Origin: a virus
Lineage: Duplodnaviria > Caudoviricetes
IMG/VR virus record: IMGVR_UViG_3300018080_000222
Span: 1-54,119 of that record
Strand: one strand, 5' to 3'
Length of the DNA: 54,119 nt
Below the pieces are notes generated by a model. That model had not been told where the DNA came from and searched no databases. It worked only from the letters and a program-made list of their open reading frames with translations. Positions 13,128 to 49,855 of this stretch are shown here, one piece after another. How positions within the stretch are numbered: the stretch's first letter is position 1; every line of letters starts with the position of its first letter. The position numbers and the translations under genes were made by a program.

Positions 13128-13676
13128 TTAGAATCGGCCCTGATCTGTTACCTCGGTTGGGATACAAGTGACAATTGCCAACAGTTCCACGGGAGTTGAT
13201 CCTGCGACCCCGATAGCGTCCTTAGCCTGAGCAGATAGGGTAGCCCTCAAGGAACCTCCCTTTGGAACGGCCACGTAAGTCTGGTCTAGGCTTAAATTGA
13301 AAAGACCACTGGCATTGGAAGGTGCACGAAGTAGCAGCTTGTCGGTACTGGATACCGATCCAGAAGCATCCTGCGTCACCACTGTATTCCACGAAGCACT
13401 AGATGGTTGTGTCGGAGACGTATCTTTCGTAGTTGAGCTTTGTAAAGCTACAGTGAGATTTGATCCACTGCCACTGAAACCAGCACCGGATACAGAAACA
13501 CATTGCACTTCAAAATCAAGTACCTTGATCGGAAATGGACAATTCTTGTTGTAATAGTTCTCAGTATCAGTTGTTGCTGACCCAGAGACAGCCGTTACCG
13601 ATAGCGTTTTATACATCTTGATCGGCTTTGGCGACGGATTCCGATTTGCTCCCCAAGTGTCTGTTACGAGTGTCAT
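13128..13676 (-). CDS. Putative virion structural/decoration protein (Ser/Thr/Gly-rich)
   Basis: Start reassigned to MTLVTDTW (GGAGG RBS); own late promoter and terminator; beta-sandwich-like composition. Confidence 0.55.
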   Translation of the reverse strand: MTLVTDTWGANRNPSPKPIKMYKTLSVTAVSGSATTDTENYYNKNCPFPIKVLDFEVQCVSVSGAGFSGSGSNLTVALQSSTTKDTSPTQPSSASWNTVVTQDASGSVSSTDKLLLRAPSNASGLFNLSLDQTYVAVPKGGSLRATLSAQAKDAIGVAGSTPVELLAIVTCIPTEVTDQGRF

Positions 13677-13755
13677 AGCACTACCTCCATCAAAAGATAA
13701 GGCCAAAGGGATTCCGGCCACGCAACCGAAGGCCCAGTGGATTCACCTGTTCTGG

Positions 13756-13765
13756 TTATACACCA
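13756..13765 (-). promoter_or_regulatory. Class L promoter TGGTGTATAA
   Basis: Exact intergenic motif copy. Confidence 0.7.
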
Positions 13766-13857
13766 AATGGAGGTTTAAATGGAGTGTTTTATTGTCCATG
13801 GTGACATTTAATTCGCCACAGTTCAGTTGGAGGTGAACCATGTCTAATCATGGGATA

Positions 13858-14046
13858 CTAACTCCTATGTGTCGGCCATCTATCCGGATCAATCCGCCTA
13901 AGCTGTCGGACGGCCATAATCCGCTGGCATTCGTGAATGCTGCGACGAAAATCATCTATATCATCTGGATGTGTCGGCGTGAGTTTCACGAAATGATTCC
14001 AGGCAGATATGAGATTGTCGGAAATTTCTTGTTCTATCTTACACAT
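13858..14046 (-). CDS. Small hypothetical protein
   Basis: 62 aa with GGAG RBS, immediately after tRNA-Gly. Confidence 0.55.
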   Translation of the reverse strand: MCKIEQEISDNLISAWNHFVKLTPTHPDDIDDFRRSIHECQRIMAVRQLRRIDPDRWPTHRS

Positions 14047-14059
14047 TAAACATCTCCGA

Positions 14060-14132
14060 AGTCGCCATTCGGATTTGCACCGAGACCCCCTGGTTGGAAA
14101 CCAGGAATGCTGCTGTTAAACACCACGGCGAC
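14060..14132 (-). tRNA. tRNA-Gly(TCC)
   Basis: GTCGCCG/TGGCGAC acceptor, U73, anticodon arm CCTGG-TTTCCAA-CCAGG, atypical T-loop TGCAAAT; no encoded CCA. Confidence 0.85.
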
Positions 14133-14135
14133 GAA

Positions 14136-14207
14136 TACCAGCGACAGGAGTCGAACCTGCATTACCTGGTCCACAGCCAAGCGTTCTACCGTTAAACTAC
14201 GCCAACC
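14136..14207 (-). tRNA. tRNA-His(GTG), degenerate acceptor stem
   Basis: Anticodon arm CTTGG-CTGTGGA-CCAGG; T arm GCAGG-TTCGACT-CCTGT; acceptor GTTGGCG/CGCTGGT has four G-U pairs and A73. Confidence 0.7.
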
Positions 14208-14238
14208 ACTACAACCGACTTTCGAGACCAATCCCAGT

Positions 14239-14421
14239 TTACTGTCTCCCAAAGACAGATGGTGAGTCCCCACATCTGATACATCGTTTCATAAAATGTG
14301 TATTGTTACCCCAACGGTCATGTTCAACCAGAGTATGGGGCTCAGCATAACTGTGACCCAAGACCCAACACACCGCACGACGCAACCAGTACCTTAAATT
14401 CCTTGGCGGTATTCTTTTCAT
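14239..14421 (-). CDS. Small zinc-binding phage protein (DUF1660-like)
   Basis: CWVLGH...CIRCG pattern; ATGA overlap with upstream gene. Confidence 0.5.
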   Translation of the reverse strand: MKRIPPRNLRYWLRRAVCWVLGHSYAEPHTLVEHDRWGNNTHFMKRCIRCGDSPSVFGRQ

Positions 14422-15014
14422 TTCTTATCTCCTGTCTGATTAATTTCCATAATCTTTTTTAATTCATCTCTCGGGGTTAGACTGGATGACCTATAAACCC
14501 ATCCGTCATTAGTCAGCAATAGGTGTCTAATCGCATGGTGATTGTGGCACAGAATCTCTAGGTTGGCTATGTTATTGTTGTTTTTATCCCCATCTATATG
14601 GTGAACCACCAACATATATCTATGTTTAACACCACAATCCGAACATTGGTTAGGGAGCATCCGATACGCAATATCTCGATAATTAGATGGACTTACCGGG
14701 TTATAGTGTCGTGGATGTATGTCAGAACAACTACCCAAAAAGCTTTGTGCATAATCTTTACACCGTCTGCTACAAAAGGTTTTGCCGTGCTTAGAGTTTT
14801 TAAGCTTATTGGGGGTGCGGCTAAATGGTTTTCCACAATTATCGCAGACAACAACAATCCTGTTTCTGCGACCGATATTAGAACAATTGTGTGAGCAATA
14901 TTTTGGCTGCGGTCTTGTATCAGAGACCAATCTCTCCACAAATTCTAAGCCACAGGTTTGACACACATATATCTTCCCACGACGTTTGTGTCCATATTTG
15001 TCTGTAAAGGTCAT
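14418..15014 (-). CDS. HNH endonuclease with Cys-rich zinc-finger repeats
   Basis: Start reassigned to MTFTD (track start lies inside tRNA-Ala); CQTCG..YCSHNC, CDNCG..FCSRRC, VHHIDGDKNNNNIANLEILCHNHH. Confidence 0.85.
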   Translation of the reverse strand: MTFTDKYGHKRRGKIYVCQTCGLEFVERLVSDTRPQPKYCSHNCSNIGRRNRIVVVCDNCGKPFSRTPNKLKNSKHGKTFCSRRCKDYAQSFLGSCSDIHPRHYNPVSPSNYRDIAYRMLPNQCSDCGVKHRYMLVVHHIDGDKNNNNIANLEILCHNHHAIRHLLLTNDGWVYRSSSLTPRDELKKIMEINQTGDKK

Positions 15015-15028
15015 ACAGTTACCTCCAC

Positions 15029-15100
15029 TGGAAGCATTCGGATTCGAACCGAAATCTCCTGCGTGCAAAGCAGGCGTGTTCCCATTATCACTATGCCCCC
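15029..15100 (-). tRNA. tRNA-Ala(TGC)
   Basis: GGGGGCA/TGCTTCC-A acceptor with G3-U70; CCTGC-TTTGCAC-GCAGG; GGTTCGAATCC. Confidence 0.9.
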
Positions 15101-15567
15101 TAATCTAACTGAATCTTTCTTTTCAGGTCATAACCAATCGCCTTCTTCTCCGGTTCGTGCTCCGGAGGTGGAGACTCGTGATCGTCTGGCGGGTCATCTG
15201 TAGAGGTATAAGAATTAGTATTAGCAGCACCAGTTAGCTCTGGACTGGGCAAATATTCAAATGAATCACCCGGCTGTGACATCATGAATTTGACGGCACT
15301 CCCATGCATTTTGTATATCTTGCCAGGAGGCACATAGTCACTAGCGATAATTTTAATACCACATATCATCATCGTTGTTCGCGAATGTTCGACCACAGCA
15401 CTGCCAGGCCAGTCGTTACGCTGCCTCAATTGAAAAGTTATGTGCTCAAAATCACCGCCCCATACCAAAAGCGTATCTACGGGATTGATATTGCCGTCCT
15501 GGTGGTGTACTTCAGCAATTATTTTCATAACATCATCAAGACTGACGACATGTTTATCTTTGTCCAT
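15100..15567 (-). CDS. Hypothetical protein
   Basis: 155 aa; TAG stop overlaps the first base of tRNA-Ala. Confidence 0.55.
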   Translation of the reverse strand: MDKDKHVVSLDDVMKIIAEVHHQDGNINPVDTLLVWGGDFEHITFQLRQRNDWPGSAVVEHSRTTMMICGIKIIASDYVPPGKIYKMHGSAVKFMMSQPGDSFEYLPSPELTGAANTNSYTSTDDPPDDHESPPPEHEPEKKAIGYDLKRKIQLD

Positions 15568-15577
15568 ACTTCAATCC

Positions 15578-15895
15578 TTATCGAGACAGTCGTTTTAGCA
15601 TCTCTTGATACTCCTTACGGAGTTTTTCCAGTACCGCCTTCACTTCTTTGCGCCCATGTTCCAATCCTTCGTTATACCAGATTTTATTAGTCGCAGAAGT
15701 TTTTCCACCACACCTAGAACACCGGTAATCACGAATTAATTGTTTCCCTTCTACCGGTATCGGTTGGAAATCGTGAGGTCCCCTGCAACTCCTCAGCTTA
15801 GCCTGATTGGCCTTAACATCCCTCCATATCTGATCTACAGTTTCAGGTTCCACGTCAGCAAACTCCAATATCTCTTCGATATCATTTAGGTTCAC
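15578..15895 (-). CDS. Hypothetical protein with CxxPH..CxxC motif
   Basis: 105 aa, overlaps upstream stop. Confidence 0.55.
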   Translation of the reverse strand: MNLNDIEEILEFADVEPETVDQIWRDVKANQAKLRSCRGPHDFQPIPVEGKQLIRDYRCSRCGGKTSATNKIWYNEGLEHGRKEVKAVLEKLRKEYQEMLKRLSR

Positions 15896-16310
15896 CTTGG
15901 GTTATCTCCGCTTTTCTTATTGGCCAAACATATGGCAACTGGTCCGTTTCGCTCCACCCAAATTGTCCATACCACTCATGGTTCTTGCGCAATAAATTCG
16001 ACCTATGAGAAGCATGGAATTTTTCATTCCCGAACCACGGTGGCATCTCAACTGGTTCTGTTACTTCTGCAATCTGCATCGTATTGTTATATCCACGTCG
16101 AATCCACTCATGGATACACTTATTCATGTACAGCCGCAATGCATTCTCGTATCCCCACCACATTAAAACGGCAGGGTGATTTGCCCACCGACTACCGTGG
16201 ACAAGAGTATTAATAATCTGCATGGCTTCTACTCTTTGCTTACCAAGCCTTTTATAATCAAGACATTGCACACTCTTGCCAAAATTGGCATATGGAAGAA
16301 AAGTTTGCAT
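15882..16310 (-). CDS. Pyrimidine-dimer DNA glycosylase (T4 endonuclease V-like, MSMEG_6728 family)
   Basis: MQTFLPY...LDYKRLGKQRVEA...NHPAVLMW...HASHRSNLLRK...YVWP signature. Confidence 0.85.
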   Translation of the reverse strand: MQTFLPYANFGKSVQCLDYKRLGKQRVEAMQIINTLVHGSRWANHPAVLMWWGYENALRLYMNKCIHEWIRRGYNNTMQIAEVTEPVEMPPWFGNEKFHASHRSNLLRKNHEWYGQFGWSETDQLPYVWPIRKAEITQGEPK

Positions 16311-16324
16311 CTTATTCTCCAAAA

Positions 16325-16397
16325 CTTACCCGATGGGATTCGAACCCATGACCTAACGGTTAACAGCCGTTCGCTCTGGCCCCTGAGCTACGGGCAA
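16325..16397 (-). tRNA. tRNA-Asn(GTT)
   Basis: TTGCCCG/CGGGTAA-G acceptor; AACGG-CTGTTAA-CCGTT; GGTTCGAATCC. Confidence 0.9.
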
Positions 16398-16400
16398 GGT

Positions 16401-16649
16401 CTAGTCGTCATCTGGCCAATTCCTATCAATTTGTTCCTGGGCAAAACTTCCAGGACGCCTCGCGATACCTGCCCCCGGCATGGATGACTCCAGAGCTATA
16501 CAGGCAGCTATGTCACACCTTTTGGAGCACACCGGACCACCGTAGAAGTTCATGGGGAGCCTATCACCTGTGTCAGGATGCAAAACAACTCCACCAGATG
16601 TTTTCTTAAGCAAACGTTCACAATAACGACATCGAACTTCATCATCCAT
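16401..16649 (-). CDS. Small Cys-rich hypothetical protein
   Basis: Start reassigned to MDDEV; CRYC...VCSKRC. Confidence 0.55.
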   Translation of the reverse strand: MDDEVRCRYCERLLKKTSGGVVLHPDTGDRLPMNFYGGPVCSKRCDIAACIALESSMPGAGIARRPGSFAQEQIDRNWPDDD

Positions 16650-17274
16650 CGATAATCTCCACAGTAATCCCTCGCTTCTTCGCTTCCCGGACAATATGCT
16701 TCGTGCCCTTTGATTTCGACATATCATCATGGAAGGCGATAAGCAAATCTGGTTTCGTATTCAACATCCTAATGTTCCTTTTGGGTCCTGCTGCTTTACC
16801 ATATTTCTTCCACGCTGCCGGGAATTCAACCACCTCTAATCCGATATCCAGAGCAACTTCGCGAGCGATCAAGTCAGCCCCTTCGCACCCACCCTCGATC
16901 ACAGTGGTGATATGTGGCAACTCAAGTAATCTCTTACGTATAGTTGGGATATCTTTCCAGTCCCGCGAGCCACATACAATAACCTTCATGTTTCCATCCA
17001 AGTATTCGACGATCACATCTCCGTGACACGCCTTGGGTTTACAAAAACATCCGAGTCTTTTGCCTCTGAGTAATTCGATACGTGCAACAAACTCTGGATC
17101 AACCCGTAGCCGTTGATAAAAGTAATCACGATATAACTCAATTACTCGCTCTCTGCCGCCATCCTTACCTATGGCAAACGGATTTCCAAAGTATCCATCA
17201 TCACCATCCCTCGCCCGGCCAACATAAACATCGCACTTATTGGTCCGTATGTTGACTACCGTGGTTTTCCCCAT
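16642..17274 (-). CDS. DUF4326 domain fused to YspA-like SLOG (DUF2493) domain
   Basis: DVYVGR..FGNPF..GKRLGCFCKPKACHGDV, then VIVCGSRDW..GGCEGAD..AAGPKRNIRML..SKGT. Confidence 0.85.
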   Translation of the reverse strand: MGKTTVVNIRTNKCDVYVGRARDGDDGYFGNPFAIGKDGGRERVIELYRDYFYQRLRVDPEFVARIELLRGKRLGCFCKPKACHGDVIVEYLDGNMKVIVCGSRDWKDIPTIRKRLLELPHITTVIEGGCEGADLIAREVALDIGLEVVEFPAAWKKYGKAAGPKRNIRMLNTKPDLLIAFHDDMSKSKGTKHIVREAKKRGITVEIIDG

Positions 17275-17470
17275 CTATTTCTCTCTTGGCCAAGACTAAT
17301 ACGTCTATATAACCGATGTTTTCTCGATCCCACTCCTGATGCATCTCAGGACGACCAGCGAGATATCCTGCGACTAAATCATGACACTTCTCGTTACAAC
17401 GAATAGTGTCCGGATCATTCAAGCAGGATAATCCCCATCTTACCCACCCCGACTTCTGAAACAATGGCAT
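17237..17470 (-). CDS. Hypothetical protein, first gene after the attenuator
   Basis: Start reassigned to MPLFQK (track start lies inside the terminator hairpin). Confidence 0.5.
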   Translation of the reverse strand: MPLFQKSGWVRWGLSCLNDPDTIRCNEKCHDLVAGYLAGRPEMHQEWDRENIGYIDVLVLAKREIDGENHGSQHTDQ

Positions 17471-17499
17471 GATCCACCCCCTATGTCCGATATACCAAC

Positions 17500-17524
17500 A
17501 AAAAAACCCGTGATTTCTCACGGG
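17500..17524 (-). terminator. Attenuator terminator
   Basis: CCCGTGA-GAAA-TCACGGG followed by T7; its 5' arm overlaps an alternative 11-bp hairpin. Confidence 0.85.
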
Positions 17525-17549
17525 TAAAGTCCTCGATTCTCATGGGACC

Positions 17550-17618
17550 TTACCCAGGCGCGCACCAACCCCCAGCGGCATTATGATTGGGTACATTTGG
17601 TCTGCATAAGGTTCTCAT
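17550..17618 (-). CDS. Putative attenuator leader peptide MRTLCRPNVPNHNAAGGWCAPG
   Basis: GGAGG-N8-ATG just after promoter; TAA lies within the antiterminator 5' arm. Confidence 0.7.
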   Translation of the reverse strand: MRTLCRPNVPNHNAAGGWCAPG

Positions 17619-17640
17619 ACGTCGTTCCTCCGGATGTTAT

Positions 17641-17668
17641 GTTATACCCCAAAGTGGTCAGTTTGTTC
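17641..17668 (-). promoter_or_regulatory. Class M promoter GAACA-N15-GGTATAAC
   Basis: One of five copies with identical spacing; upstream T-tract. Confidence 0.7.
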
Positions 17669-17678
17669 TAGGAAAAAT

Positions 17679-17713
17679 AAAAAAACCGCTGATTCGCCAG
17701 GCGGGCTCAGCGG
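17679..17713 (-). terminator. Rho-independent terminator
   Basis: CCGCTGA...TCAGCGG followed by T7. Confidence 0.8.
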
Positions 17714-17726
17714 AAGCCTTTGTGGA

Positions 17727-17993
17727 TTACCTGCCACTGGCAGAGAACTTAGCTTCTAGCCTTTTTTCGATTTCGGGCAAAAACTTAAGGCTATTATTCC
17801 ACCGACCGAAATAGAAATACCACTCAAACATTGTTAATTTCTTGCCATTGAAATTTTTCAGATGTTCCATATTCTTTGCAAAGTAATCCAAGGCAAATTT
17901 TGCATTATCCACAAATTCATTGACCGGAATAATATCGTCTGGTGGATCAAATAAGTCTATATCAGAAATATGCGACAAATCTTCCTGTGTCAT
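17727..17993 (-). CDS. Hypothetical protein
   Basis: 88 aa, AAGGAG RBS, TAATG coupling. Confidence 0.6.
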   Translation of the reverse strand: MTQEDLSHISDIDLFDPPDDIIPVNEFVDNAKFALDYFAKNMEHLKNFNGKKLTMFEWYFYFGRWNNSLKFLPEIEKRLEAKFSASGR

Positions 17994-18178
17994 TAATTGG
18001 TCTCCTTATGTTTAAAAAATTCTATTTGTCTAAGGCGATCCTGGGCTTTCTTCTTGGTTGGGTAGCATCCCAGCTTTTTCCCGCTCTTGCTGAATACACA
18101 ATACTGTGTTCCAACCTTCCGAACTACAGCCTGTACGTAATATTCCGGATTAACTACCTCTTTGTTCCAATCGGTCAT
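17993..18178 (-). CDS. Small basic phage protein
   Basis: Start reassigned to MTDWN; VRKVGTQYCVFSKSGKKLGCYPTKKKAQDRLRQIEFFK. Confidence 0.6.
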   Translation of the reverse strand: MTDWNKEVVNPEYYVQAVVRKVGTQYCVFSKSGKKLGCYPTKKKAQDRLRQIEFFKHKETN

Positions 18179-18434
18179 CACTTTCCCCCTTTTGCTCTCG
18201 ACATTCATAATATGCTGCCAAAGTTTTATCCCAGTCATGGGCCTTTTTGCCAGCAGCAATCAATGCTTCGCCCATTTGAATGGCCTGATCGCCGGTTAAA
18301 TCCATCCCATAAAATCCTGGAGTGAACCCCTTTGTTGAGACTCGATGGTCGTGGACATTGATCAAAACGTCCGGTCCATCGCCCCAGGTGCACGCAACTG
18401 CTATTTTTACCCCATAATTTGTCATAATATTCAT
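18150..18434 (-). CDS. Hypothetical protein
   Basis: 94 aa, AGGAG RBS. Confidence 0.55.
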   Translation of the reverse strand: MNIMTNYGVKIAVACTWGDGPDVLINVHDHRVSTKGFTPGFYGMDLTGDQAIQMGEALIAAGKKAHDWDKTLAAYYECREQKGESDDRLEQRGS

Positions 18435-18511
18435 TTAATTGGCTCCTAAGCGTTTCAGGGGTCCAGGACCCCGAGCAAGACGTCAAAGTGGCACACAGGC
18501 CGGGGAACGGA

Positions 18512-18730
18512 TTATTTGACCCCTTCTAGAAGGTCACCCGTGAGAGCAGAAGGGTCATTCCCCAGGTTATCTGCGTTATCCCAGTAAAATTGCCAACATG
18601 TGGAGAACCCGTCAACACATGCAGCGAAATTCCACCCTCCGACGTCACTGACCATCGTCTCCAGTAGCTTGCAGCCATTGCAAAACATGGCCCCAACTGT
18701 TAAAATGATAATACATAGACTTTTACGCAT
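18512..18730 (-). CDS. Putative small lipoprotein
   Basis: MRKSLCIIILTVGAMFCNGC: signal peptide with lipobox-like Cys. Confidence 0.5.
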   Translation of the reverse strand: MRKSLCIIILTVGAMFCNGCKLLETMVSDVGGWNFAACVDGFSTCWQFYWDNADNLGNDPSALTGDLLEGVK

Positions 18731-18938
18731 CTGTCCCACCCCATCCTCTCGTTCGACCTCGTTTACCCACGTTTGGTGGTTTCCGAAGCGGAGGAAAGCG
18801 ACTATAAATCTCTCCGGTAGATAGATTTCCCAGTTCAGACAACCACTGCTTTTCAATTGCTGGTGTCCACGGATTAGGATTGCCAATTAAATCAAGTACG
18901 GCCTGATTCGGTGGACTCTTTTTCTTGCTCTTACCCAT
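18723..18938 (-). CDS. Small basic hypothetical protein
   Basis: MGKSKKK start with GAGGTG RBS, after tRNA-Thr. Confidence 0.5.
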   Translation of the reverse strand: MGKSKKKSPPNQAVLDLIGNPNPWTPAIEKQWLSELGNLSTGEIYSRFPPLRKPPNVGKRGRTRGWGGTDA

Positions 18939-18962
18939 TTTATACACCTCTGCTAACTTACA

Positions 18963-19035
18963 AGCTAGGAGTGGGATTCGAACCCACAACCCCCGCTTCA
19001 CAAAAGCGGTGCTCTACCATTTGAGCTACCCCAGC
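18963..19035 (-). tRNA. tRNA-Thr(TGT)
   Basis: GCTGGGG/TCCTAGC acceptor; CCGCT-TTTGTGA-AGCGG (G37); GGTTCGAATCC. Confidence 0.88.
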
Positions 19036-19039
19036 ACTC

Positions 19040-19339
19040 TTAAAATCCACACTGCTTACCGTATTCTTCCCAGATTGCCTTCCGGAAATCTCTGGGCAAT
19101 CCCCAAAGAGCATCGACAAGCGACCTCTTCCTGCCAGTAGCTCGACAGAAATTATCATTAGGATGACAAACTGCCATTCCATCATTCGCCAATTTCCCAT
19201 CGATCAGTAATACGGCAGATGAACATCTTCGTGATTCATCTGTAACGATACCAGTTCGTCCCTCTACCTCGCCTGGCTTAAGACGACCATGGTAAAAACG
19301 TATTTCGGCTTTACATCCATCATGCGTAACTCTTAGCAT
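19040..19339 (-). CDS. Hypothetical phage protein
   Basis: AVCHPNDNFCRATGRKRSL-type motif. Confidence 0.6.
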   Translation of the reverse strand: MLRVTHDGCKAEIRFYHGRLKPGEVEGRTGIVTDESRRCSSAVLLIDGKLANDGMAVCHPNDNFCRATGRKRSLVDALWGLPRDFRKAIWEEYGKQCGF

Positions 19340-19683
19340 CCTTCTTCTCCATTTTCCAACTCTCTTTTCAAAACCTCACAAAGTTCTTCAACCGATGTAT
19401 AAACCGGTTTACCTAGTTGCTTGGCTAACTCTACTTCTTGGGTAGCCCCCTTGGAAGGACCGGCCAATCTTAGGACAATATCACATTGCCTAACCCACTC
19501 CATACACATATCCATCCACGTATGATAATTCTGCGGATGAACAAAATGCCAAAAATGAAACAAGTGTGGTACGAATGGAGCACAGTCAAACTCCACCAAA
19601 CGATTAGCAGCATCGATAGCTGCCCTGACGTTCAGGATAGTATCTCCCTCAGTATATGGTCCTGCTATGTAAACCTTGTACAT
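19333..19683 (-). CDS. DUF4406/DUF1937-like nucleoside 2-deoxyribosyltransferase-fold protein
   Basis: Start reassigned to MYKVYIAGPY (AGAGGAG RBS); CDIVLRLAGPSKGATQEVELA. Confidence 0.75.
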   Translation of the reverse strand: MYKVYIAGPYTEGDTILNVRAAIDAANRLVEFDCAPFVPHLFHFWHFVHPQNYHTWMDMCMEWVRQCDIVLRLAGPSKGATQEVELAKQLGKPVYTSVEELCEVLKRELENGEEGC

Positions 19684-19700
19684 TGAATCTTCTCCTCTAA

Positions 19701-19851
19701 TGGCTACGGGCTGGATTCGACCAGCAGTTCCCTGTTGCTTGCGGCAACTTTCGTTCATAGGTCCTAAAACTTGAACTTGGCAGTTTTGTGGGAACACCCC
19801 GCCAAAGCCGACTATCTGTCGAGTGTCGCCCTAACAAGACACACCGCAGCC
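19701..19851 (-). ncRNA. tRNA-like RNA with ~82-nt multi-hairpin variable region
   Basis: 8-bp end stem GGCTGCGG/CCGTAGCC, D-like arm TGTC/GACA, stem TCGAC/GTCGG, T-like arm GCTGG-TCGAAT-CCAGC. Confidence 0.55.
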
Positions 19852-19990
19852 TAGTCCAGGAATAGGGGGCCTCGCACTCCCCTCGGTGGTCACTATTCCG
19901 GCGTTCACCACTAACTACCGCGACTTCGGTTTCAGCACAATTTCTTGCGAGCCCATTGCTCGCTCATGCTCTCTCTAGTGTCGCCTAGAG
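19852..19990 (-). ncRNA. Structured non-coding segment between tRNA-Asp and the tRNA-like RNA
   Basis: Consecutive helices CTCTAG/CTAGAG, GCGAGC/GCTCGC, ACCG/CGGT, GGAATAG/CTATTCC, GGGG/CCCC; no credible ORF. Confidence 0.4.
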
Positions 19991-19996
19991 TTAGAT

Positions 19997-20069
19997 CGAC
20001 GATGATGGGATTCGAACCCACATCTCCTGGATCGACAGTCCGGGGCTCTACCAGTTAAGCTACATCGCC
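19997..20069 (-). tRNA. tRNA-Asp(GTC)
   Basis: GGCGATG/CATCGTC-G acceptor; CCGGA-CTGTCGA-TCCAG; GGTTCGAATCC. Confidence 0.88.
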
Positions 20070-20342
20070 ATTCTCTCGTATCTTTTCGTCCTCATAGGTG
20101 CTCATGTGTCTACGACGAAACTCAGCAGCAGCTTCGGTCATCGCAGACATAACAACGGCCATCCTGGCATATGATCTTTTGCCGCCAGTTTCCTGATTCG
20201 TGAGGAGCTTGGCGAGACGGAAAAGGATATAGTTAAGCTCTCCACCAACTGAGCCATCGCTTTCCCTCGTATTAAGAATATCTGCGAGTCTATCAATCAG
20301 TGGATCATATTTGTCTCGCTCTGGTTTCTTGATATATGGCAT
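20055..20342 (-). CDS. Conserved phage protein (MPYI...GELNY family)
   Basis: MPYIK...GELNY...EFRRR...YEDEKIRENGDV. Confidence 0.7.
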   Translation of the reverse strand: MPYIKKPERDKYDPLIDRLADILNTRESDGSVGGELNYILFRLAKLLTNQETGGKRSYARMAVVMSAMTEAAAEFRRRHMSTYEDEKIRENGDVA

Positions 20343-20974
20343 TATTGTTTAGTCTTTCTTTTTTGTCCAGGTACAACGGATAGGGCCTCTTCGACAGACC
20401 ATCCTGCCGCCAACCTATATTGAATAGTACCCACTTTTATTCCAATATCATCTGACCATTTGGTTATACATTGTGTCTTGCCCCCATATGTTAACACATG
20501 ATTATTCCTTCTGTTGGATTGCTGTTCTTTTCTGGTAGCCCACCTACAATTTTCTGGACAATAATTGCCATTGTTATCTATCCGATCCAGAGAACGTCCT
20601 TCGGGACGCTCTCCCATATCTGCCAAGAAGTTTTCAAATTTAAGCCATCTTCGGCAAACGACAATCCCGCGACCACCGTAATCTTTGTACTGTTGGTATA
20701 TGCGATTAGTACATCTTTGGATCATGTGATCCCATGATTTATAGGTACCAGATATTTGTCCCGTACTGTGCCCATGTCGAGTCATGATGTCCTTATGGAA
20801 GCAACCACAACTATTAGTGTGTCCATTAACCAAATGACTGCCTGCGACAACGGTCGTTTGGCCACAGTGGCACTCACATAACCACATAGAATTTCCACGG
20901 CTATTGTTGGAAACCCTTTCCACAACAGTCAAGCGTCCGAACTTATCACCGATTAATCTCAGGGGTTTAGACAT
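20342..20974 (-). CDS. HNH homing endonuclease
   Basis: GDKFGRLTVV..WLCECHCG; YGGRGI..DRIDNNGNYCPENCRWAT. Confidence 0.85.
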   Translation of the reverse strand: MSKPLRLIGDKFGRLTVVERVSNNSRGNSMWLCECHCGQTTVVAGSHLVNGHTNSCGCFHKDIMTRHGHSTGQISGTYKSWDHMIQRCTNRIYQQYKDYGGRGIVVCRRWLKFENFLADMGERPEGRSLDRIDNNGNYCPENCRWATRKEQQSNRRNNHVLTYGGKTQCITKWSDDIGIKVGTIQYRLAAGWSVEEALSVVPGQKRKTKQ

Positions 20975-21951
20975 TAGGATTTTGCCAGATATCTGTTGCC
21001 AACTACCTTCAACTTTAATCTACCGATCTTGGGAGAACTTCGTTCCGTCGGTAGAGACACGACTACTCCCTCCCGATGATGATTGGCTCCTGGATAGGCA
21101 GAATCTTCTTCTGCCATCGCTAAAACCTTCTCCTTAATATATGGTCCTCTGTATAAAAACGGCACCCATGGGAGAGCACTACCAATATCCCTTGCTTCAT
21201 CAAAATCAAGCCAACGATTACCCTGTAATAAATCAAAAGCCGCCACGAAAACCCTGCCGTTCATAGAACCATATTTAAGGTTTTGGACATTCCCGAAAAC
21301 TTCGGCATATATAGTTATTCCCTGATTGTGCCTACACCATGCGTCTAAGACCGGATAGTTGTAGAAGGCTTTCCACCATAAGTTGTCCTTGTCCTCGGCC
21401 TTCCACTGTTTGCGAGACCCACAATACATCTTGTCGTTAACACAAACAAAACGCGCAGAAGCCCCGTGAAGCTTCTCGGACAAACATATCTCTTCACCAT
21501 CCTCTAGTAAATAGGAATATTTTCTAAAATTTGGTACATCATATACCGGATAGAAACCATCTGGTCCAGCAATGTTCTCGACAGAATCTTTCTTTAGCGG
21601 ATTATTCGGTCCCATGCTGCATCGGATAGGTGGCTCATAGTGTTCGATACCAAGCTGTTCCATACAGTCATCGCCGACTTGGGCTCCGGGTGGTGCAGGA
21701 ATCAATAGCCCCATGGACCATTCGCCCCTGAGCCTACGAGCCTTAATGCGACGATTGCCATTCAGAAAAGCAAAATCTGGCGTATCTGGTACTATGCTGT
21801 CGGGCTCAATGTATACAGCAAGATCGCCGTCTCTCCAGTCATCGGTTCGAACTGCACACTGGAAATCATCAACCATGACCAAACTCAAAGAGTCGGCATT
21901 CGGATGAGGCTCTAGTTTGACCCGGACCACCTCGGCAGTATGTTCTAGCAT
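20974..21951 (-). CDS. ATP-dependent RNA ligase (DRB0094/Rnl5-like) with N-terminal OB fold
   Basis: EPHPNADSL..GDLAVYIEPDS..LRGEWSMGLL; motif I EKLHG; AEVFG, FD, REGVV, KLKVV..YL. Confidence 0.88.
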   Translation of the reverse strand: MLEHTAEVVRVKLEPHPNADSLSLVMVDDFQCAVRTDDWRDGDLAVYIEPDSIVPDTPDFAFLNGNRRIKARRLRGEWSMGLLIPAPPGAQVGDDCMEQLGIEHYEPPIRCSMGPNNPLKKDSVENIAGPDGFYPVYDVPNFRKYSYLLEDGEEICLSEKLHGASARFVCVNDKMYCGSRKQWKAEDKDNLWWKAFYNYPVLDAWCRHNQGITIYAEVFGNVQNLKYGSMNGRVFVAAFDLLQGNRWLDFDEARDIGSALPWVPFLYRGPYIKEKVLAMAEEDSAYPGANHHREGVVVSLPTERSSPKIGRLKLKVVGNRYLAKS

Positions 21952-27993: not shown

Positions 27994-28003
27994 TTATACA
28001 CCA
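27994..28003 (-). promoter_or_regulatory. Class L promoter TGGTGTATAA for tail tube
   Basis: Formed by terminal codons (I-G-V-stop) of the LAGLIDADG gene. Confidence 0.7.
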
Positions 28004-28773
28004 ATAGCACTCAAATATTTCCGTGTTAATGATATGCTAGTATTATCATAAAGAGCACACAATAATCTGGCTATATATTTACCAGCATACTTAATTTCCC
28101 AACAACAATCTGTTTTTTTATATGGCGATACATTCGGTGACCATCCCAAAATATGGCTTATGAATTGATGGAAATTAACAACTACATCATAGGTACCGCA
28201 AATACCGAGTATTTTCTTGCTCACCCACCCATCCCCATCAATCATCCCTCGCCAAAAATGCCTATTGCTTTTCAAAGCTTCGGGAACTTTAGCAATCCTA
28301 CTTTTTCGAGGAACAATCCCATATTCTGCCAATTTTTCCACAATTCTGTTGGAATAAATACTCAAGAAGACTCCATTTTTATTGTAATACAACGGCTTAT
28401 CAGAACCAACGAATTTTTTGAACTTTTCCAAGTGCTCCCAATCCTTAGCAGCCAACCCTAAGTTCAATTGCTTCGATCTTCTCGGGGGATGGTAGATATT
28501 ACCATCAGCCAAAATAAAGCCTACCCAATAGGCGCTTTCTTCCGTAATTGTATCGAAGATATTTTCTCTAATCTGATTCGTCCTTTTCGCGTTGCTGCGA
28601 TTCCGGACAAAAACCCCTCGCCTTTTTAATAGAGACGTAATCGTAACATCAGCAACATTATATTTAAATCCTAATTGTCTGGCAGACTTTCCTCCTTCAT
28701 ATTCCCCTATTATTTCCTGCGTTACTGCCTCGCTCGGATTCCACTGATCTGATCTACTTTTTCTGTCCTGCAT
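27994..28773 (-). CDS. Free-standing LAGLIDADG homing endonuclease with N-terminal HTH
   Basis: AYWVGFILADGNI and HFWRGMIDGDGWV. Confidence 0.88.
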   Translation of the reverse strand: MQDRKSRSDQWNPSEAVTQEIIGEYEGGKSARQLGFKYNVADVTITSLLKRRGVFVRNRSNAKRTNQIRENIFDTITEESAYWVGFILADGNIYHPPRRSKQLNLGLAAKDWEHLEKFKKFVGSDKPLYYNKNGVFLSIYSNRIVEKLAEYGIVPRKSRIAKVPEALKSNRHFWRGMIDGDGWVSKKILGICGTYDVVVNFHQFISHILGWSPNVSPYKKTDCCWEIKYAGKYIARLLCALYDNTSISLTRKYLSAIGV

Positions 28774-28795: not shown

Positions 28796-28805
28796 TTATA
28801 CACCA
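28796..28805 (-). promoter_or_regulatory. Class L promoter TGGTGTATAA
   Basis: Exact motif upstream of the LAGLIDADG gene. Confidence 0.7.
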
Positions 28806-28820
28806 ACTTTATGCAATCCA

Positions 28821-49842: not shown

Positions 49843-49852
49843 TTATACACCA
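49843..49852 (-). promoter_or_regulatory. Class L promoter TGGTGTATAA
   Basis: Exact motif upstream of portal. Confidence 0.7.
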
Positions 49853-49855
49853 AAG

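Follow-up and report, generated by a model that had tools for sequence, protein, structure and literature searches.

A putative leader-ORF attenuator ahead of a SLOG and tRNA gene block in a clade of large phages

What decides whether a phage transcribes its own tRNA genes? The question is raised by a 54,119-base IMG/VR virus record (IMGVR_UViG_3300018080_000222, estimated to be 32% complete), hereafter the window, meaning the whole stretch of DNA analysed. On its minus strand, a short open reading frame (ORF), a hairpin and an intrinsic terminator stand at the head of a block in which a DUF4326/SLOG gene and small accessory genes accompany the majority of the phage's tRNA genes. Passages of two papers discuss phage tRNA genes as a counter to host tRNA depletion and tRNA-cleaving defence (PMC10264068, PMC11555353), and the main text of the first contains no word beginning 'attenuat', 'terminator', 'promoter' or 'leader'; the control of phage tRNA gene expression is hardly addressed in the searchable literature. 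An original prediction, made from the letters of this DNA alone, proposed an attenuator whose leader codons match the tRNAs that it controls. Of that proposal, the promoter-proximal leader ORF and the antiterminator/terminator switch heading the tRNA block stand, and the tRNA-matched codons do not. The reading we favour, with somewhat more confidence than doubt, is a ribosome-mediated leader-ORF attenuator, belonging to a clade of large phages, that controls entry into the SLOG/tRNA block and whose signal is slow or uncoupled translation of any kind.

Leader module and its antiterminator/terminator switch

Coordinates are window positions, and every feature of the leader module lies on the minus strand, where all sequence features named by the original prediction were located in their expected places:

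17679-17713, minus strand: upstream intrinsic terminator (CCGCTGA, 14-nucleotide (nt) loop, TCAGCGG, T7), which insulates the unit
17641-17667, minus strand: promoter-like element (AACAAAC, 7 nt, TTTGGGGTATAA(C/T))
17667-17642, minus strand: promoter-like motif AACAAACTGACCACTTTGGGGTATAA, matched once in the window, where shuffles predict 0.00
17627-17631, minus strand: Shine-Dalgarno sequence (SD) GGAGG, 8 nt ahead of the leader ATG
17618-17550, minus strand: leader ORF MRTLCRPNVPNHNAAGGWCAPG, 22 codons and TAA
17588-17612, minus strand: region 1, candidate anti-antiterminator, with ACCTTAT (17612-17606) and TACCCA (17593-17588)
17545-17558, minus strand: region 2, 5' arm of the antiterminator, CCTGGGTAAGGTCC, the leader stop codon forming arm positions 7-9
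17519-17532, minus strand: region 3, antiterminator 3' arm, GGACTTTACCCGTG, of which the final 6 nt double as the 5' arm of the terminator
17500-17524, minus strand: terminator (regions 3 and 4), CCCGTGA-GAAA-TCACGGG-T7, the best match of the terminator scan

Homologous modules, sought in related phages, were found in three, one copy each and in the syntenic place, between the upstream terminator and the DUF4326/SLOG gene with its following tRNA genes. The module-bearing set accordingly has four members, all uncultured phages: the window (G000), G001 (a 181-kb record with terminal repeats), G003 (160 kb, 96% complete) and G004 (161 kb, 97% complete). These relatives were reached through the DUF4326-SLOG protein, an alignment of DUF4326-SLOG and the promoter motif with its 7-nt spacer, and the family may extend beyond the four members known. 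All four share one order: an upstream T-run or terminator, AACAAAC-7 nt-TTTGGGGTATAA, an ORF, a hairpin containing its stop codon, an intrinsic terminator and the ribosome-binding site (RBS) of the next gene, followed, at once or with one or two small ORFs in between, by a DUF4326 and/or SLOG gene and then by small genes mixed with tRNAs. A covariance model (R1) built on G003 and G004 alone recovers the window element (17498-17570, minus strand; 30.5 bits, E 1.6e-5) and the G001 element (31 bits), with exactly one copy each in G001, G003 and G004.

The switch itself can be compared across the set, with energies in kcal/mol:

G000 (window): ORF of 22 codons, stop TAA; 13/14 hairpin positions paired; terminator overlap 6 nt; hairpin -17.2, terminator -12.4
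G003: ORF of 27 codons, stop TAG; 14/14 paired; overlap 6 nt; hairpin -25.8, terminator -15.7
G004: ORF of 27 codons, stop TAA; 14/14 paired; overlap 6 nt; hairpin -25.2, terminator -17.2
G001: ORF of 85 codons, stop TAA; 13/15 paired; overlap 3 nt; hairpin -13.1, terminator -12.2

The 11-bp hairpin GGGTAAGGTCC/GGACTTTACCC described at the outset is present in the window and proves longer than claimed: 17558-17545 faces 17532-17519 across 14 positions, a single one of them mismatched. The stretch that it shares with the terminator, which had been put at 3-4 nt, therefore reaches up to 6 nt. In 4/4 genomes the stop codon of the ORF falls at positions 7-9 of the hairpin 5' arm, and all four terminators combine GC-rich stems of 7-8 bp with a GAAA-type loop and T6-T8. 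When the four sequences are aligned, 54/55 cells are paired and five pairs are altered on both sides, a covariation score reached by 0/500 shuffles; sliding the partner by 1-3 columns as a control leaves 22-48% paired. We regard this covariation as support rather than proof, since the alignment was fitted to the structure model, and is thus biased toward the structure, and contains four sequences of which two are close. The terminator stems vary in a compensatory manner as well, reading GCCCGCGA/TCGCGGGC in G004, GCCTGCGA/TCGCAGGC in G003 and CCCGTGA/TCACGGG in the window, with compensatory C-G to T-A changes among the homologous terminators of G001, G003 and G004. Together, the placement of the stop codon, the terminator overlap and the pairing and covariation in four genomes support a translation-coupled attenuator architecture.

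In the full-length minimum-energy folds of G000, G003 and G004, region 2 pairs with an upstream part of the ORF and the terminator is complete; in that of G001, hairpin and terminator stand side by side. Cutting the transcript after region 3 yields the antiterminator in G000 and G004, and masking a ribosome footprint at the stop, the constraint suggested with the original prediction, lets the terminator form in 4/4. The protector that had been proposed, TACCCA with TGGGTA, evaluates to -5.27 kcal/mol; RNAfold instead favours ACCUUAU (codons 3-5) as the region 2 partner in the window, both at full length and when the transcript is cut at the end of region 2.

Two variants of this architecture were considered and set aside. 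An outer extension of the antiterminator suggested by RNAalifold, GGTGGTG with the terminator 3' arm, pairs in 27/28 cells and shows no covariation (241/500 shuffles). The notion of a hairpin merely adjacent to the terminator, as in G001, was abandoned given the 6-nt overlap in G003 and G004.

The promoter-like element is identical, and in the same place, in G001, G003 and G004, and a hairpin with a T-run also precedes it in G003 and G004. Its core, TTTGG[GT]GTATAA, occurs in G001 on the coding strand only (four reverse, no forward matches; 0 in reversed-pattern controls), and the copies precede ribosome-binding sites. On the strength of this coding-strand-only recurrence and of the position before ribosome-binding sites, we accept it as a likely, putative promoter class of the phage clade.

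Downstream of the promoter, GGAGGAA and the ATG do not vary across the alignment of G000, G003 and G004; the 85-aa (amino-acid) ORF of G001 has no clear SD. The short leaders all (3/3) keep frame 0 open and frames 1 and 2 hold one to three stops each, and the window leader is shorter than those of G003 and G004 by 15 nt, exactly five codons.

Outside the four genomes, sequence searches returned little. INPHARED blastn with the window module and with the G004 module gave no match, neither of the two flanking small proteins has relatives in IMG/VR, and the exact hairpin/terminator string has 0 matches in IMG/VR. A terminator-loop pattern found 85 stretches in IMG/VR, with G003 and G004 the only family members among them (local alignment scores 145-212; next best 29). 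Among genome contigs, the terminator-plus-RBS pattern had 0 matches, and the promoter pattern had three against about four expected by our own estimate, none with leader, terminator or tRNAs. An Rfam cmscan of 13500-20500 at E <= 1 reported tRNAs, a weak Tymo_tRNA-like match and a weak TEG147 match, and no leader, T-box or riboswitch family; the TEG147 match lies on the terminator and scores 22.7 bits against a gathering score of 56.1.

Proposed mechanism and rival explanations of the module

Were the module to work as its layout suggests, transcription would begin at the conserved promoter and the short ORF would be translated from its strong SD. A leading ribosome that keeps pace would reach the stop and cover region 2, which would leave region 3 free to pair with region 4, so that transcription would end after about 135 nt. 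A ribosome that lags, or stalls earlier, would instead let region 2 pair with region 3 in a helix predicted to be more stable than the terminator; by taking up to 6 nt of the terminator 5' arm, this hairpin would allow the polymerase to read into the SLOG and tRNA genes. The signal would most likely be slow elongation in general, arising from a low supply of charged tRNA or from lost transcription-translation coupling, and is probably not a shortage of the four tRNAs encoded downstream.

The closest known systems are trpL, hisL, thrL and ilvL, the leader-peptide attenuators of amino-acid operons. With them the phage module shares a short ORF close to the promoter and provided with an SD, a terminator of the intrinsic type that precedes the structural genes, a competing antiterminator that uses the terminator 5' arm as its own 3' arm (here in partial overlap), and a stop codon in or next to region 2, such that completed translation favours termination. 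Unlike them, it is borne by a phage and stands before tRNA and accessory genes rather than biosynthetic enzymes, it has no common run of a single control codon, and neither its peptide nor the position of its 1:2 helix is conserved.

A number of observations weigh against an attenuator. The window taken alone is not convincing: the fold of its 146-nt leader is no more stable than those of shuffles (z = -1.38, equalled by 20/200), and its two states, an 11-bp hairpin with a 4-bp terminator stub (-21.2 kcal/mol) and an 8-bp hairpin with the full terminator (-19.6 kcal/mol), are nearly isoenergetic, differing by 1.6 kcal/mol. The 1:2 helix is the weakest part of the model, since every genome offers some upstream partner for region 2 and the place of that partner in the ORF differs from genome to genome. 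An open frame arises by chance in 0.30-0.40 of shuffles per sequence and is therefore moderate evidence only. The peptide is not conserved either: the G003 and G004 leaders are identical at 17/27 residues (63%) and differ by two synonymous and nine non-synonymous codons, and neither shows significant similarity to the G000 leader. This lack of conservation disfavours a specific arrest peptide and fits a role for ribosome position only. No run of a single control codon is common to the genomes. G001 fits least well, with an overlap of only 3 nt and an 85-aa ORF that may be an ordinary protein gene, given a 75-aa homologue that is 75% identical and has another C-terminus. Moreover, only four genomes carry the module, G003 and G004 being close to each other, and R1 finds no element in two SLOG-bearing relatives, G005 (complete) and G002. 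A 190-nt contig from run X3 is a near-identical variant of 17449-17636 with six differences, of which the three listed (17479, and 17538 and 17541 in the hairpin loop) include none inside the leader ORF; the variant agrees with the structure, its three listed differences are uninformative, and we give it little weight. Contigs from the one RNA run match tRNA-like pieces and the upstream terminator only, which is uninformative on leader expression.

Much of this evidence can also be told as a story without regulation, in which a promoter and a small gene of 22-85 aa are followed by a conserved 3' hairpin and a leaky terminator that permits constitutive partial read-through. The homologue of the G001 protein, the side-by-side hairpin and terminator in the G001 fold and the near-equal energies of the two window states all suit it, and the short ORFs could then be remnants, the G003 leader being weakly like the C-terminus of the G001 85-aa ORF (218/5000 shuffles, suggestive only). 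It accounts poorly for a hairpin that takes 6 nt of the terminator arm in 3/4 genomes through compensatory changes, an overlap that a merely stabilizing hairpin would not call for, and equally poorly for a stop codon at constant helix positions in 4/4 and for an SD and ATG conserved despite an unconserved peptide. We consider this explanation unlikely. Descent of the window's 22-aa ORF from the G001 ORF was rejected separately: peptide similarity is not significant (4045/5000 and 4128/5000 shuffles), and DNA local alignment is also at shuffle level.

More doubtful still is control by a factor, whether a phage or host protein that picks the hairpin or the terminator or a polymerase made resistant in the manner of lambda Q, with the ORF incidental. 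Lambda Q acts on RNA polymerase at the promoter, and its pR'-tR' unit (6S RNA) has neither a leader ORF nor a competing hairpin. The phage module resembles that layout in having a phage promoter, a strong terminator within about 135-200 nt and a gated gene block; it differs in possessing both leader ORF and competing hairpin, and no Q-like factor or site was seen, though no search was aimed at either. In favour of such control, transcription factors of their own are common among phages, and the hairpin core, (C/G)TA(A/G)GG..TC(T/C), is conserved beyond what pairing requires. Against this, no candidate factor or binding motif was identified, again with no search aimed at them; the antiterminator is already the more stable structure, so that a stabilizing protein would be unneeded; and the conserved SD, ATG and in-frame stop are left unexplained.

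Leader codons and downstream tRNA sets

Does a ribosome-mediated attenuator of this kind read particular codons? The original prediction held that leader codons 11-17 (N-H-N-A-A-G-G) are tuned to the four tRNAs encoded downstream and sense the loss of their charged forms. The gene layout that it described is confirmed by ARAGORN, with tRNA-Asn, Ala, His and Gly downstream of the leader and tRNA-Thr and Asp upstream, and the codon run is real and rare. Runs of at least seven drawn from {N,H,A,G} number two in 108,234 six-frame codons of the window and one in 367 ATG-ORFs of 15-40 aa, that one being the leader ORF, and only 3/4845 sets of four amino acids give a run of at least seven in the window leader. 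A ribosome stalled on these codons would also keep clear of region 2.

The downstream tRNA sets of the four genomes are as follows:

G000 (window): Asn, Ala, His, Gly (n = 4)
G003: Leu(taa), Leu(tag), Trp, Leu(caa), Tyr (n = 5)
G004: 17 tRNAs for 12 amino acids, including the window's four in the same order
G001: Leu x3, Ile, Gly, Arg (n = 6)

Across these genomes the control codons do not co-vary with downstream tRNA content. The share of N, H, A and G in the leader is 10/22 in the window and 11/27 in both G003 and G004, yet the whole G003 record has seven Rfam tRNA matches, none of them Asn, His, Ala or Gly, and just 3/27 of its leader codons match its own L, W and Y set. G003 and G004 have 63%-identical leaders and nevertheless five and 17 downstream tRNAs. 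The longest run from a genome's own set is 7 in G000, 1 in G003, 16 in G004 (with its 12-amino-acid set) and 2 in G001, and when leaders are permuted against tRNA sets an excess at least as large arises in 5/24 arrangements. The idea that leader codons mirror the controlled tRNAs fails on this comparison, above all on the N+H+A+G-rich G003 leader, an outcome that the original prediction had itself named as counting against it.

The composition of the run suggests how it came about. Its Ala-Ala (GCCGC) and Gly-Gly (GGTGG/GGGGT) codons lie within GC-rich segments conserved in all members and are ancestral; the N-H-N triplet is specific to the window, the aligned residues being A-N-L in G003 and A-I-L in G004. 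Family composition and chance best account for so rare a run in the window. As the window does encode tRNA-Asn and tRNA-His, a window-specific adaptation of these three codons is possible. Given further that GCC and GGT require extended wobble, that the match was noticed post hoc and that the tRNA-Gly scores below the Rfam gathering threshold, tuning of the leader to these four tRNAs is very improbable, and a codon/tRNA match seen in one genome and absent from its relatives is unfit to be cited for tRNA-specific sensing.

T-box riboswitches also tie the choice between antiterminator and terminator to tRNA charging. Unlike them, the phage leader has no specifier loop, no UGGN bulge and no Rfam T-box match, and sensing here would proceed through the ribosome. 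A T-box or other known leader family was rejected, there being no Rfam match.

Downstream block, neighbouring sequences and implications

The genes under the proposed control, and two genes upstream of them, are arranged as follows:

14060-17470, minus strand: downstream block, within which no promoter is recognisable
First part of the block, minus strand: 77-aa ORF, DUF4326-SLOG gene (17274-16642), 81-aa ORF, tRNA-Asn (16398-16324), pyrimidine-dimer glycosylase gene, two ORFs
Rest of the block, minus strand: tRNA-Ala (15100-15029), HNH gene, 60-aa ORF, tRNA-His (14206-14136), tRNA-Gly (14132-14060)
20974-21951, minus strand: RNA ligase gene (phrog_968, E 1.6e-34)
20342-20974, minus strand: HNH endonuclease gene

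The SLOG, glycosylase and HNH genes that had been read in the block are borne out by Pfam (DUF4326 and SLOG (YAcAr), Pyr_excise and HNH_3). Five of the six window tRNAs exceed the Rfam threshold. The sixth, tRNA-Gly(tcc) at 14060-14132, is an ARAGORN call with 24 bits in Rfam against a gathering score of 29 (E 0.16), and may be atypical or decaying. The window's long ORFs are all on the minus strand, and it also codes for a portal-like protein, an RNA ligase and HNH endonucleases. The RNA ligase and HNH endonuclease genes listed above lie just upstream of tRNA-Asp and tRNA-Thr; by analogy with T4 Rnl1, an RNA ligase beside tRNA genes presumably points to tRNA repair.

In none of the four genomes does a TTTGG[GT]GTATAA-type promoter occur between terminator and tRNAs, and the next minus-strand copy after the window module is at 13767-13756. 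Terminator-like sites in 13500-20500 number six against 5.2 expected. A separate promoter directly after the terminator was considered and rejected: GTTGGTATATCGG matches the promoter core at 8/12 positions, and the sequence aligned to it in G003 and G004 holds the RBS and start of the following gene. There, TGG-NN-TATCGGAC(C)ATG (window 17470-17500, minus strand) serves as that RBS and start; the window has ATA where G003 and G004 have the ATG, and its 77-aa ORF, which has no IMG/VR relatives, begins 17 nt further on. The interval 17470-17500 looks like a hotspot of small-gene turnover.

Other copies of the promoter motif were noted along the way. TTTGG[GT]GTATAA occurs exactly at 13756-13767 and 49843-49854 of the window (minus strand, intergenic), (A/G)TTGGTGTATAA, with two mismatches to the searched pattern, lies at 27994-28005 and 28796-28807 (minus strand, intergenic), and G001 has copies at 82370, 86918 and 158874; the copies are on the coding strand only and stand 25-60 nt ahead of ribosome-binding sites. 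At 13701-13767 (minus strand) a terminator-like hairpin (13719-13701) comes about 35 nt after the motif (13767-13756), with an RBS and ATG behind it, and this may be a second promoter-proximal structure. On the other side of the leader, a stretch of about 70 nt (17677-17748, minus strand) comprising the end of an 88-aa ORF and the upstream terminator recurs with three to six differences in several metagenome runs. The contigs that share it, among them an 84-kb contig and one from an RNA library, are unlike the window beyond both ends, and one has an SD and ATG straight after the terminator instead of a promoter; the stretch may be a shared or mobile terminator cassette.

DUF4326 and/or SLOG (YAcAr) genes lie within or adjoining tRNA clusters in several otherwise unlike phage contigs:

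L002, 4001-5567: DUF4326/SLOG near tRNAs
L024, 2905-3339: DUF4326/SLOG gene beginning 30 nt past tRNA-Ile
L033, 514-6272: DUF4326/SLOG surrounded by 14 tRNAs
Window, 16324-17274: DUF4326/SLOG near tRNAs

This recurrent placement in or near tRNA clusters hints at a tRNA-related function of these genes. By tblastn, relatives of the DUF4326-SLOG protein appear in 2533 cultured-phage records. In G003, the interval from tRNA-Leu(taa) to the DUF4326-SLOG gene contains a partial tRNA-like Rfam match (98208-98267, minus strand; 31.1 bits, model positions 8-63), absent from the ARAGORN calls, which may be a tRNA remnant.

Attenuation of the translation apparatus has a precedent in the Phe-codon-rich pheM leader, which controls an aminoacyl-tRNA synthetase (pheST). 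The phage module would likewise attenuate a component of that apparatus, with capacity feeding back on its own supply; it differs from pheST/pheM in that the products are tRNAs themselves and no amino acid dominates the leader. We propose tentatively that the module is a speedometer of translation, in which the lag between polymerase and ribosome on a short ORF would control the phage's own tRNA, SLOG and accessory genes by homeostatic feedback. Searches of the open-access literature turned up no account of homeostatic leader-ORF attenuation of tRNA supply for tRNA genes or phages, and none of a leader-peptide attenuator placed ahead of phage tRNA genes. If the speedometer reading is true, the tRNA block would be switched on when elongation slows, for example after tRNA cleavage by a defence nuclease or upon a mismatch of codon usage with the host pool. 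More broadly, an attenuator before a tRNA block would, if true, couple tRNA supply to translation stress through a simple circuit open to experiment, and would carry classic attenuation over to viruses and to a kind of controlled gene new to it.

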